The position numbers and the translations under genes are program-made. From the NCBI GenBank assembly GCA_009840385.1, contig VXNX01000009.1, positions 101,585 through 165,584 on the forward strand: 64,000 nt of DNA. The letters run 5' to 3'. This DNA is from Candidatus Dadabacteria bacterium. GTDB taxonomy: Bacteria > Desulfobacterota_D > UBA1144 > Nemesobacterales > Nemesobacteraceae. Below, piece after piece: positions 39,032-43,902 of this stretch. The notes below the pieces were generated by a model that ran no database searches, had not been told where the DNA came from, and saw only the letters and a list, made by a program, of their open reading frames with translations. Each line of letters begins with the position of its first letter. The stretch's first letter is position 1.

Positions 39032-39458
39032 TGTATCTCCTCCAATTTCTAAGTTGGCCCCACACTACTTCACTGAGGGGTAGAAAAATTAGTGTATCTT
39101 TCAAGATACTGTATAATATAAGTATTCTCTATAGTACAATACTACGGTAAGAAGAATTCACCAATGGGTGAAAACATTGAATACTTCTTAAAAAACATCT
39201 CTCGAAGGCCTAGTTGGATAATGGTGGAATTGGTGAACTTACTTGCCATGGGTCAGGTTTACAACGGGCTTCCAGTCGCACAGTAAAAGTAGATTGGAGA
39301 TGGTTAAGAAGAACTTAGGGACCAAAGATCCAAATCTCGGCTTTCTGAATCACCCAGCATATCGGTCCTTACAAAAAACTTCATTGAGATGGTTGAAGTG
39401 AAATTGTCTAATAACTGAATTATAGTCCTATTAACATTCCTCAATTAAAACCACGAAA

Positions 39459-39893
39459 ATGACGCCGGAAGAATATCTCAAGGATCGAGTTGAACAGCAA
39501 ATCAATTGGTACGACTGCAAAAGTACCCTTAACAAAAGATACTTTTACCTTTTACAAATCATTGTTTTGGTAATGTCCGCGGCTGTGCCAGTGGTTTCAA
39601 TACTATCCATAGTTTTTGAAAGCATATGGATACGGCTTGCCATAGGAATATTGGGTGCACTCGCAACTATAGCAACAGGGATTATTTCAATTTGCCAGTT
39701 TCGTAAGAATTGGATTGAATACAGGACAACGGCAGAATCGCTGAAGTGTGAAAAATACATGTTTAGAACTAAAACTGGTTTCTATGCAAAAAGTGGAACT
39801 TTTCCAGTGTTCGTAGAACGAATTGAAGCATTGATCAGCAAAGAGCACAAAAACTGGGAACAACATCTGAGAATCCAGAAACAAGCCGACTAG
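39459..39893 (+). CDS. SLATT-like two-TM protein (DUF4231-like predicted membrane effector)
   Basis: 144 aa. N-terminal WYDCKSTLNKRYFYLLQ followed by two hydrophobic helices and a short C-terminal tail, the SLATT/DUF4231 layout. First gene of the plus-strand operon. Confidence 0.5.
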   Translation: MTPEEYLKDRVEQQINWYDCKSTLNKRYFYLLQIIVLVMSAAVPVVSILSIVFESIWIRLAIGILGALATIATGIISICQFRKNWIEYRTTAESLKCEKYMFRTKTGFYAKSGTFPVFVERIEALISKEHKNWEQHLRIQKQAD

Positions 39894-39928
39894 AAAACAT
39901 TATCTCGCTGGCAAACAAGAGAATAACA

Positions 39929-40900
39929 ATGCCAGAAAATCGAAAAACTGAACTACGCGTTGCAGAAACGGTGCTGCCGTTGCCGTGCTTCTTCCCGTCA
40001 GTTTCAAGTGTAGTAAAAACCGACATGACACCAACTGATCATATAGAGCTTCTCGGTTTTTCCGCACACTCGCTCTTTCTTATTTCGGCATATGATGTTG
40101 CGAACTGCACTTACCAAGACCGAAAGCGCATAAAAACCGCACTTGATAAGAGCAAAAAACACGGGGCAGTAATACTGATGGATAGCGGTAATTACGAGGG
40201 GTTTTGGAAAGTAGACAAAACTTGGAAGGCAGATAATTTCCATGAAGTCGTAAAATCCTGTAAAAATGATCTTTGTTTTTGTTACGACAATCACAATCCC
40301 CCTGATTCCATAGAGACAATTGCGGAGGATGTGATTGCAAGAGTTATTCAAGATCAAAATCACACCAATGGGATCGTGTGTCCGATAATACACGGGGAAA
40401 CCACACTTCTGCCTGGTTCAGCCAAAAGGGTGGCAGAACAACTTTCTCCATTGCTTTTGGCGATTCCTGAACGAGAATTAGGAAAAGGAATAATTGGACG
40501 GATTCGGACTATAAAAAAAATACGAAAATCCCTAAACGATCTGGAAACTTATTGCCCCCTGCATTTGCTAGGTACGGGAGACCCCGTCTCAATCATTGCT
40601 TATTCAATGGTCGGGGCAGACAGTTTTGACGGATTGGAGTGGTGCAAAAGCGTTATAGATCACGAAACAGGTAATCAGCACGATTTTCAACATTGGGACT
40701 TTTTCCGGCATCAAACAAATCGAGAACTGCCGGAGAATTTTCCCCACAAGCAATCAGTCTTGATGCACAACTTGAATTTCTACAGACAGTTCATGAAGGA
40801 ACTACATGACGCTGTAAAGAATGAAGATACAGAAACGTTTCTGCGACGGTATACAACCGAAAACCAGGCTTCTTTATTGGTTGATGCAATCAAACAATAA
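39929..40900 (+). CDS. tRNA-guanine transglycosylase-fold protein, DpdA-like (predicted 7-deazaguanine DNA transglycosylase)
   Basis: ILMDSGNYEGFW (equivalent of the DSGGFQ substrate pocket) and PLHLLGTGDPVSIIAYSMVGADSFDG (equivalent of the LxGxGxP...D.FD segment carrying the catalytic Asp). No CxCxxC zinc site. Confidence 0.65.
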   Translation: MPENRKTELRVAETVLPLPCFFPSVSSVVKTDMTPTDHIELLGFSAHSLFLISAYDVANCTYQDRKRIKTALDKSKKHGAVILMDSGNYEGFWKVDKTWKADNFHEVVKSCKNDLCFCYDNHNPPDSIETIAEDVIARVIQDQNHTNGIVCPIIHGETTLLPGSAKRVAEQLSPLLLAIPERELGKGIIGRIRTIKKIRKSLNDLETYCPLHLLGTGDPVSIIAYSMVGADSFDGLEWCKSVIDHETGNQHDFQHWDFFRHQTNRELPENFPHKQSVLMHNLNFYRQFMKELHDAVKNEDTETFLRRYTTENQASLLVDAIKQ

Positions 40901-41604
40901 TGGGTAAAACGTTCGCAAACCAACTTCCGCTTTCGGTTATTAAAAACGCGATTCTAGATATTTGTATCGTCCTAGAAGAGCAAGAACTAATATTCACCTC
41001 TTCACCAACTTGCAGTGAAGACAATCTTTGGAGAGAACTTGTGTCCTGCATTCTGGGGAGCCGGGTCAGGTTTGAAACCGCTTGTGCTGCGGTAGAGCGG
41101 CTAGACGACATGTGTTTGTTATGCCACTCACGCCGCACATCAAACTTCGACCAATATGAAACTGACATACTGTCAACTCTTTCGGGAAAGTATCCGTTTT
41201 ATAAGCTTCGAGCAAATCAGATACGGCAGGCGGCGGAATCACTTTATGGTTCCGGGGGTTCAATTAAGAGTCTCTTGGATAATACAGTCGATTTCCGTGA
41301 GATGCGGCAATACCTGATATCTGAAATCCCAGGATTGGGACCAAAGCAGTCCAGCTTGTTTCTTCGCAATATAGGATACGCCGACAGCGTTGCTGTTTTG
41401 GATGTTCATGTTCTGACCTATATGAATTGGGTTGGTTTGACAACGGTTCTTGAGAAGTCAATTCCGACTATACGCAAATACGAAACGCTTGAGAACTCTT
41501 TCGTTGAACATTCCCTATCTTTAGGATATTCTCCAGAGCAGTTTGATCTTGCCGTGTGGTTAGTTATGAAGGTAGCAAGGAAGGAATATAAAACATGGGG
41601 ATAG
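40900..41604 (+). CDS. HhH-GPD superfamily DNA glycosylase, Ogg2/AGOG-like
   Basis: ISEIPGLGPKQSSLFLRNIGYADSVAVLDVHVL helix-hairpin-helix Gly/Pro loop plus a downstream Asp, typical of archaeal-type 8-oxoguanine glycosylases. Start overlaps the upstream stop. Confidence 0.55.
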   Translation: MGKTFANQLPLSVIKNAILDICIVLEEQELIFTSSPTCSEDNLWRELVSCILGSRVRFETACAAVERLDDMCLLCHSRRTSNFDQYETDILSTLSGKYPFYKLRANQIRQAAESLYGSGGSIKSLLDNTVDFREMRQYLISEIPGLGPKQSSLFLRNIGYADSVAVLDVHVLTYMNWVGLTTVLEKSIPTIRKYETLENSFVEHSLSLGYSPEQFDLAVWLVMKVARKEYKTWG

Positions 41605-42179
41605 TGACTCTTGTATCCGGAGGTGTCGACTCCATGCTCATGAGCCTTTTTGCTCACGAAGAGGGTGTCGAGTTATTTCCCCTTTTCGTTGATTATGGGC
41701 AGCTTGGAGTATCCAAAGAATGGGAGGCATGCAGGCGACTACACGAACAGTTTGGTCTGCCAGAGGTCACTTATATGGACCTCTCAGGTTTCGGAGAAAT
41801 TATTCCGAGCGGTATTACAGACTCCAGATTGAGAATAAACGAAGATGCTTTCCTACCTGGCCGCAACCTTCTTTTTGTGCTGGCCGGAGCAGCCTATGCC
41901 TTAAAGGTCCAAGCCGATAGCGTGGCAATAGGTCTGCTTTATCAATCGGACCATATTTTCCCAGATCAAGACGAAAAATTCATTGAAAGGTGTGAAGAAG
42001 TGATTGAAACAGCCATGGGAAAACATATTAATGTCATCGCTCCGTTAATAGAGTTTTCAAAAACAGACGTGCTGACTATGGCCCGTGCACGCGGACTAGA
42101 AAACACATATTCCTGTCACGCAGGAGGCGATAGACCCTGCGGGGTATGTATAGCGTGTGTTGAGATTGACAATGCCTAG
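41595..42179 (+). CDS. queC: 7-cyano-7-deazaguanine (preQ0) synthase
   Basis: VTLVSGGVDSM PP-loop and C-terminal zinc ligands CHAGGDRPCGVCIAC, 194 aa. Confidence 0.8.
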   Translation: MGIVTLVSGGVDSMLMSLFAHEEGVELFPLFVDYGQLGVSKEWEACRRLHEQFGLPEVTYMDLSGFGEIIPSGITDSRLRINEDAFLPGRNLLFVLAGAAYALKVQADSVAIGLLYQSDHIFPDQDEKFIERCEEVIETAMGKHINVIAPLIEFSKTDVLTMARARGLENTYSCHAGGDRPCGVCIACVEIDNA

Positions 42180-42193
42180 ACAAAGGAGGAATC

Positions 42194-42697
42194 ATGGGTG
42201 GTAAATACTCAGGTGGTGGCAGTCTAAGCCCAGAACACCTAGAAGAACTTGAGCAGAGTGCCAAGAAATCCATAGAAAAAGGGGTATCTGGAAAGGTAAA
42301 TGCGTTCATAAGCTTTGATTCTGAAGACCTCAATGAAGTTAACTTGCTGCGCGGTCAAGCCAAAAACGAGAATACCGATATCGAATTCAATGATTGGTCG
42401 GTTAAAGTACCCTTTAACAGCGAAAGAGCTGAGTACATTCGACGTCGTATCCGGGAACGTATCAGGCAGTGTTCAGTCACAATTGTTTATGTTTCCGAAA
42501 AGACAGCCAGCAGCAAGTGGGTTGATTGGGAAATAAGAGAGAGCCTTGCTATGGGTAAAGGAGTTGTTGCCATGCACAAAGGTTCTACACCACCCAGACA
42601 ACTTCCAAAAGCGATTAAGGAAAATAATATTCCCGTTGTGCCTTGGAACCAACGGGAATTGGCAAAAGCTATCAAAAAACAGTCGGAAAACCGATGA
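42194..42697 (+). CDS. TIR-like domain protein (DUF1863/ThsB-like)
   Basis: KVNAFISFDSEDLNEVNLLRGQ...CSVTIVYVSEKTASSKWVDWEIRESL fits the DUF1863 TIR-like pattern. Confidence 0.5.
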   Translation: MGGKYSGGGSLSPEHLEELEQSAKKSIEKGVSGKVNAFISFDSEDLNEVNLLRGQAKNENTDIEFNDWSVKVPFNSERAEYIRRRIRERIRQCSVTIVYVSEKTASSKWVDWEIRESLAMGKGVVAMHKGSTPPRQLPKAIKENNIPVVPWNQRELAKAIKKQSENR

Positions 42698-42716
42698 GTG
42701 AAACCCAAAGGTAAAT

Positions 42717-43460
42717 ATGAATATCGATCTTAATAACATAAACCATTTGCCGGAGGCTGAGCAGCATAAGCTTGAATCAATTAGAGACTTGTGCCATCAA
42801 GAAGAATACTCCCAAGAATTAGTCAGACATAGTCGGGTACAGCCATTAGTTCGGGAACTAAATGATTTTTGCATGTCTAATCGAGTTATTGGAATTCACT
42901 ATACTCGTGCAAACAAGACAAGCATAGTTAAGTACGGGTTATTGTGCCGTTCTGGTGATGAGATCAGGGAAACTTTTCTTGAAGAACACGGGAAGCTCTT
43001 TACAGATGAGGAGATATCCAAACTAAAAAGCACTTGGGATAGCACCTATTGTAAAGAAGAGGCTAGTAACCGAGATTTCATGATTTTTTTTAATTTTATT
43101 ATTACCGAAAATCCTTTACATAATGCGGCTACAGAGGATCTCCTGAACCACTATGGAGGTGAACAAATTCCAATATGCTTTTGTCAACCTCCTTTGTTCA
43201 TACAGGGCGGCACCAATAAAAAATGCTCAATCTGCAAGAAACTAAACCAAATAGGTGAACCATTATTAGTTAGATGCTCATTAGACCCCAAAACAGTTAA
43301 TACTTTTACCGAGAATCCATGGGGGAAGATTTTAGTTTCCTCATTTCATGTTGAAGTTAATCCCGAAGCTTGTCGCATAGACCAAGATGGTTATATTAAG
43401 AAGCCAGTTTCCCCTCAGAACATTCTTGAAGTTAAATTACTAACAGATAGTTTCAACTAA
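42717..43460 (+). CDS. hypothetical protein with paired-Cys (possible zinc-ribbon) motifs
   Basis: ICFCQPP...KKCSICKK Cys pairs and no recognisable family. In operon with queC and TIR-like genes (19-nt gap). Confidence 0.3.
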   Translation: MNIDLNNINHLPEAEQHKLESIRDLCHQEEYSQELVRHSRVQPLVRELNDFCMSNRVIGIHYTRANKTSIVKYGLLCRSGDEIRETFLEEHGKLFTDEEISKLKSTWDSTYCKEEASNRDFMIFFNFIITENPLHNAATEDLLNHYGGEQIPICFCQPPLFIQGGTNKKCSICKKLNQIGEPLLVRCSLDPKTVNTFTENPWGKILVSSFHVEVNPEACRIDQDGYIKKPVSPQNILEVKLLTDSFN

Positions 43461-43497
43461 CTTTGGTATATCGCTCTTAACGGATAGCAGTATTTTT

Positions 43498-43902
43498 ATG
43501 GTTACCTTACAGGAGCAAAGCCTAGATTGGGCTCTTGCGCATGTGGAAACATTCGGAGACACGGATGTTTTTCCAATACCCTTTGAGTACGAAGCAATTC
43601 GTCATGATTGGGAGGCATTAAAATTTCAACTTGCCGGACAGGACCTCTTAAAATGGACAGTGCGGCCACTTCGAATCTTGCCGGCACCGAAAGCTCGATA
43701 CGGGTTTCGAATAATAACCCAACTTGACCCTTTAGATTTCCTATTGTTTGCTGCAACTATACGAGAACTCTGTACCTCGATAGAGTCCAAGCGTATCTCT
43801 CCATCCGTAGTGTGTTCGTACAGAGTGGCACCAACGGAGAATGGCCAACTTTTTGACCAAAACTACTGGCAAATTCTCATTTGGGAAGATGATCAAATAT
43901 AG
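43498..43902 (+). CDS. hypothetical protein resembling the N-terminal (motif 0-2) region of a reverse transcriptase, possibly truncated
   Basis: RPLRILPAPKARYGFRIITQLDPLDFLLFAATI resembles the RT IPKxxGxxRPI...D(R)..Q segment. Only 134 aa. Ends about 15 nt from the 3' end of the convergent PHP-ATPase gene. Confidence 0.25.
   Translation: MVTLQEQSLDWALAHVETFGDTDVFPIPFEYEAIRHDWEALKFQLAGQDLLKWTVRPLRILPAPKARYGFRIITQLDPLDFLLFAATIRELCTSIESKRISPSVVCSYRVAPTENGQLFDQNYWQILIWEDDQI

Follow-up and report, generated by a model that had tools for sequence, protein, structure and literature searches.

A probable Thoeris-type TIR locus with a SLATT protein and a type IV CBASS-like ancillary gene module in Candidatus Dadabacteria

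The locus lies in a 64,000-nucleotide stretch of a Candidatus Dadabacteria contig (hereafter, the window), within a low-GC island that spans roughly 35-48 kb (0.36-0.46 compared to 0.49-0.57 in the flanks). All seven plus-strand open reading frames of the original prediction were recovered at the same coordinates, as were the two divergent TIR genes, which form a minus-strand pair (Table 1). The intergenic gaps from gene 1 to gene 7 are 35, -1, -10, 14, 19 and 37 nt, the first having been put at 36 nt and the other five as found here. Promoters are presumed to be located between the divergent TIR gene and gene 1, where the sigma-70-like matches are weak and do not rise above shuffled sequence; the promoter and terminator scans likewise detected nothing above that background, and an Rfam search of this region returned no match. 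The seven genes had been taken for a single functional unit, but only genes 1 to 5 are conserved together elsewhere, so that the seven-gene "operon" is a composite with a conserved core (39459-42697) encoding, in this order, a predicted SLATT two-TM effector, a Cap10 (TGT-like) protein, a Cap11 (Ogg-like) protein, a Cap9 (QueC-like) protein and a ThsB-type TIR protein.

Table 1. Features of the locus and their positions in the window
Feature	Coordinates	Strand	Basis
TIR_2 protein, 303 aa	37163..38074	-	Pfam TIR_2 1.4e-16
TIR_2 protein, 283 aa	38180..39031	-	Pfam TIR_2 1.9e-29
Intergenic region, 427 bp between divergent TIR gene and SLATT gene	39032..39458	.	Read from sequence
SLATT_1/DUF4231 two-TM protein, 144 aa (gene 1)	39459..39893	+	Pfam, NCBIfam, hydrophobic segments
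Cap10-like TGT-fold protein without Zn site, 323 aa (gene 2)	39929..40900	+	PADLOC, PDB, Foldseek
Cap11-like archaeal-type Ogg (HhH-GPD) glycosylase, 234 aa (gene 3)	40900..41604	+	Pfam, PDB
Cap9-like QueC-family ATP-dependent ligase, 194 aa (gene 4)	41595..42179	+	Pfam, PADLOC, PDB, motifs
ThsB-type TIR protein, 167 aa, with 37-residue N-terminal extension (gene 5)	42194..42697	+	Pfam
Predicted N-terminal acceptor tail (MGGKYSGGGS) and following helix, coding region	42194..42304	+	Homolog alignment

The SLATT/DUF4231-like, two-TM character proposed for the gene 1 product is borne out by matches to Pfam DUF4231 (2.9e-23), Pfam SLATT_1 (1.1e-14) and NCBIfam SLATT_1 (7.6e-38) and by two hydrophobic segments (residues ~27-53 and ~55-81). 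By analogy with ThsH of type VII Thoeris, this protein is predicted to be a membrane-disrupting effector.

The gene 2 product matches Pfam TGT (4.5e-9) and, over its full length, the PADLOC 'TGT' model (3e-28), and lacks a Zn site, given that there is no cysteine beyond residue 239. The sole match in the PDB sequence search is Cap10 (9ntn), and the family profile favors Cap10 (3.8e-16) over ArcTGT (6.9e-6) and TGT (0.007). Foldseek also places 9ntn on top, with a TM-score (0.62) that is not clearly higher than those to tRNA TGTs (0.56-0.67). The residues D85/S86, D120, H212 and D234 align with D73/S74, D122, H226 and D248 of Cap10, and these positions are invariant or nearly so across the family; the nucleobase-reading K154 of Cap10 has no aligned counterpart, its place being taken by C151, with the invariant His155 close by. 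Neither PADLOC at E<=0.1, with Dpd models (DpdE and DpdJ among them) in its collection, nor the search of the family profile against PDB sequences at E<=1 yielded a DpdA match. Thus, the TGT fold without a Zn site stands whereas the 'DpdA-type' label does not, the closest solved structure being Cap10, and the protein does not group with tRNA TGTs.

Gene 3, whose start shares 1 nt with the stop of gene 2, encodes the Ogg-type HhH-GPD glycosylase that had been predicted (Pfam Ogg-HhH, 3.5e-25; best PDB matches to the Ogg2-type 3fhg, 2.2e-13, and also 3fhf/3knt). The alignment with 3fhf ('GIGYKEAS' and 'IIDRH') shows that the catalytic residues, K149 of the HhH motif (GLGPKQ) and D168 (LDVH), are intact. 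No match to an OGG model was found in PADLOC, which may or may not include one.

The gene 4 product belongs to the QueC family (Pfam QueC, 3.4e-36; PADLOC 'QueC', 1.1e-28, full length), as originally suggested, but is closest to Cap9: it scores 117 bits against the NCBIfam QueC equivalog, under the cut-off of 150 bits, and its best PDB match is Cap9 (9nto_B, 1.9e-14, compared to 3.5e-13 for QueC 3bl5). It contains the motifs SGGVDS (8-13), YxQx5E (34-42), PGRN (88-91) and Cx8CxxCxxC (174-189), and shares with Cap9 the SxGxDS, RN and aromatic-x-Asp motifs along with the Zn cysteines.

The DUF1863 TIR-like assignment of the gene 5 product is confirmed by a match to ThsB_TIR (PF08937, formerly DUF1863; 3.9e-24, residues 38-129), with the Glu of WVDWE (E113) invariant among the homologs. 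This protein shares 32% identity with a verified type VII ThsB and 66% with one member of TIR cluster 2727267812, which includes type VII and type VIII Thoeris TIRs. In both of these types, the signal is canonical cADPR, and the characterized small ThsB-type TIRs make signals; by analogy, we predict that the gene 5 TIR is a signal synthase and a substrate of Cap9. Among 117 TIR homologs, G2 is present in 115 and G3 in 110 (consensus MGGGGGGGRGLT), and the family tail reads MGGGGGGG, a poly-Gly consensus from which the tail of the window's TIR departs after G3. The Gly motif is found in the TIR of every genome locus with Cap9/Cap10 and is missing only from two homologs (L043 and L055), both without Cap9/Cap10. 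In type IV CBASS, the CD-NTase N-terminus M(G/S)G(G/S)GG is an essential acceptor of N-terminal 7-amido-7-deazaguanine (NDG) (10.1101/2025.04.06.647259). The tail of gene 5 agrees with this motif, and Gly2 is the predicted site of NDG conjugation.

The co-occurrence of these genes is strongly conserved across 38 species genomes that represent more than 15 phyla, including Poribacteria, Proteobacteria, Acidobacteria, Nitrospirota, Firmicutes, Chloroflexi and Planctomycetota. A TIR homolog adjoins Cap10 and Cap9 in 36 of the 38 genomes, where the order Cap10-Cap11-Cap9-TIR is kept in 36; Cap11 is among its neighbors in 34 genomes and SLATT in 29; the proposed functional unit of 7-deazaguanine-family enzymes, Ogg-type glycosylase, TIR and SLATT is therefore real. 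In locus L052, a TIR domain is fused to Cap10. The effector beside the cassette varies, from SLATT_1 to a double SLATT with a short ThsB, TPR-S-trypsin and MAP3K_TRAF_bd/TPR-S proteins, a change of neighbor that is typical of signaling systems. In the loci without SLATT, TPR-S proteins of the sensor-effector type occupy the same place, which argues for an exchangeable receiver of the signal. A domain search detected no CD-NTase in the operon, and a phmmer search of 46 genome loci with one SMODS protein as the query found none either.

The two divergent TIR_2 proteins are possibly additional ThsB-like sensors. The C-terminal half of the 303-aa protein matches a PADLOC ThsB model (2.6e-16), and L006 encodes a homolog with 74% identity, likewise upstream of the cassette. 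The TIR domain of the 283-aa protein and that of the L052 fusion share 31% identity over 140 aa. In about 8 of the 46 loci, other TIR_2 proteins are encoded no more than 8 kb from the cassette, with the similarity limited to the TIR domain.

Genes 6 and 7 are unrelated neighbors, an ART-fold orphan and a truncated DRT8 reverse transcriptase (RT), respectively. As the original prediction had it, the gene 6 product is a Cys-rich protein (10 Cys in 247 aa) without a family match in domain searches, and gene 7 is an RT-like fragment, namely, the first 128 residues of DRT8 (positions 2-119 of the 493-position PADLOC Drt8 model, 8e-38). A system of all seven genes, in which the TIR would be coupled to the gene 6 protein as a second effector that uses NAD+, is very improbable. 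The gaps of 19 and 37 nt are tight, two related contigs (the window and L001) have the 247-aa protein encoded just after the TIR gene, and its ADP-ribosyltransferase-like fold suggests another NAD+ user; nevertheless, neither this protein nor the RT is present in any of the 46 loci or in L002, L005 and L006, its homologs in Yersinia, Teredinibacter and Sunxiuqinia share no partner and are not flanked by TIR, Cap or RT genes, and only residues 1-128 of the 523-residue RT remain.

Type IV CBASS consists of a CD-NTase, an effector and Cap9/Cap10/Cap11 (Wassarman et al., 10.1101/2025.04.06.647259). The locus described here shares with it all three ancillary proteins, the acceptor motif with which the (predicted) signal synthase begins, the Asp/His and nucleobase-binding residues of Cap10, SxGxDS of Cap9 and the frequent 2TM/SLATT effectors. 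[quoted passage not shown] Type VII Thoeris (ThsB and the SLATT effector ThsH) also has a small ThsB-type TIR adjoining a SLATT protein, but its core comprises two genes, whereas here three ancillary genes separate the effector from the TIR, which carries the N-terminal extension. In QatABCD, the QueC-like QatC deazaguanylates QatB, so that a QueC-family enzyme has been co-opted in phage defense to deazaguanylate a protein N-terminus, as predicted here; the present locus lacks the QatA ATPase, QatB and the TatD nuclease, and its QueC-like protein is of the short Cap9 type, with the ancestral motifs kept.

The hybrid had been considered previously undescribed; however, Thoeris operons of the same architecture, with a ThsB-type TIR, an effector and cap9/cap10/cap11, and the same proposed mechanism, were reported from genome analysis in a 2025 preprint that offers example operons, including that of Pseudomonadales bacterium SP163, and AF3 models of TIR-Cap9 and TIR-Cap10 (bioRxiv 10.64898/2025.12.03.692087). 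The window's locus encodes just one SLATT_1, of 144 aa, and lacks a short second ThsB. Neither the N-terminal Gly-rich motif nor the way it co-varies with Cap9/Cap10 appears in the preprint, and the same holds for how widely the system is distributed and for the TIR-Cap10 fusions.

The original prediction of DpdA-like DNA modification implied a hybrid resembling restriction-modification, in which a DpdA-like enzyme inserts QueC-made preQ0/ADG into host DNA while the Ogg, TIR and SLATT proteins act on foreign DNA, whether modified or not. Dpd and phage DpdA systems indeed combine a TGT-fold protein with a QueC-family enzyme outside tRNA metabolism, here both are encoded beside a DNA glycosylase with intact catalytic Lys/Asp, and the Cap10 transfer target in type IV CBASS could be a nucleic acid. 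We nonetheless consider this scenario highly unlikely. Apart from the lack of DpdA matches in PADLOC (E<=0.1) and the PDB (E<=1), domain searches of the cluster detected no DpdB, DpdC or preQ0 pathway genes (FolE, QueD, QueE); the QueC-like protein falls under the equivalog cut-off, nearest to Cap9; the QueC/TGT/Ogg trio matches Cap9/Cap10/Cap11; the TIR bears a protein-acceptor motif that co-varies with Cap9/Cap10; and the product in the homologous CBASS is a modified protein N-terminus. Hence the context is neither that of tRNA queuosine nor a canonical Dpd cluster, as had been anticipated, and the target of the QueC- and TGT-like enzymes is probably the TIR enzyme rather than DNA. NADase effectors exist among bacterial TIRs, and the cassette could be a self-contained module that depletes NAD+ in abortive infection, with the TIR as its own effector and SLATT independent or part of a separate Thoeris pair. 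SLATT was not detected in 9 of the 38 loci, and in about 10 loci it is accompanied by its own short ThsB, by themselves resembling a complete type VII pair. We regard this scenario as unlikely because the window has no other in-operon ThsB for SLATT and only 35 nt between SLATT and Cap10, TPR-S sensor-effector genes replace SLATT where it is missing, and the TIR belongs to the small ThsB-type group, whose characterized members make signals.

We therefore interpret the five-gene core, with a probability of roughly 0.75, as a Thoeris-type TIR defense system with a type VII-like SLATT effector regulated by a type IV CBASS ancillary module, according to the following mechanism, in which the biochemical steps, the signal and the defense phenotype are inferred by analogy. 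Cap9, using ATP, would activate 7-carboxy-7-deazaguanine (CDG), which must be supplied by the host FolE/QueD/QueE, and ligate the deazaguanine to the Gly2 amine of the TIR after Met removal, yielding NDG. Cap10, devoid of a Zn or tRNA-binding site, would hold the tagged tail in its nucleobase pocket, keeping the TIR inactive or primed. Upon infection, the Asp/His pair of Cap10 would probably move NDG-TIR onto some target, possibly a nucleic acid, a transfer that Cap11 would undo. The freed or activated TIR would then convert NAD+ to a signal that, judging from the TIR cluster membership, is most likely canonical cADPR, and SLATT would oligomerize in response and breach the membrane, so that the infection is aborted.

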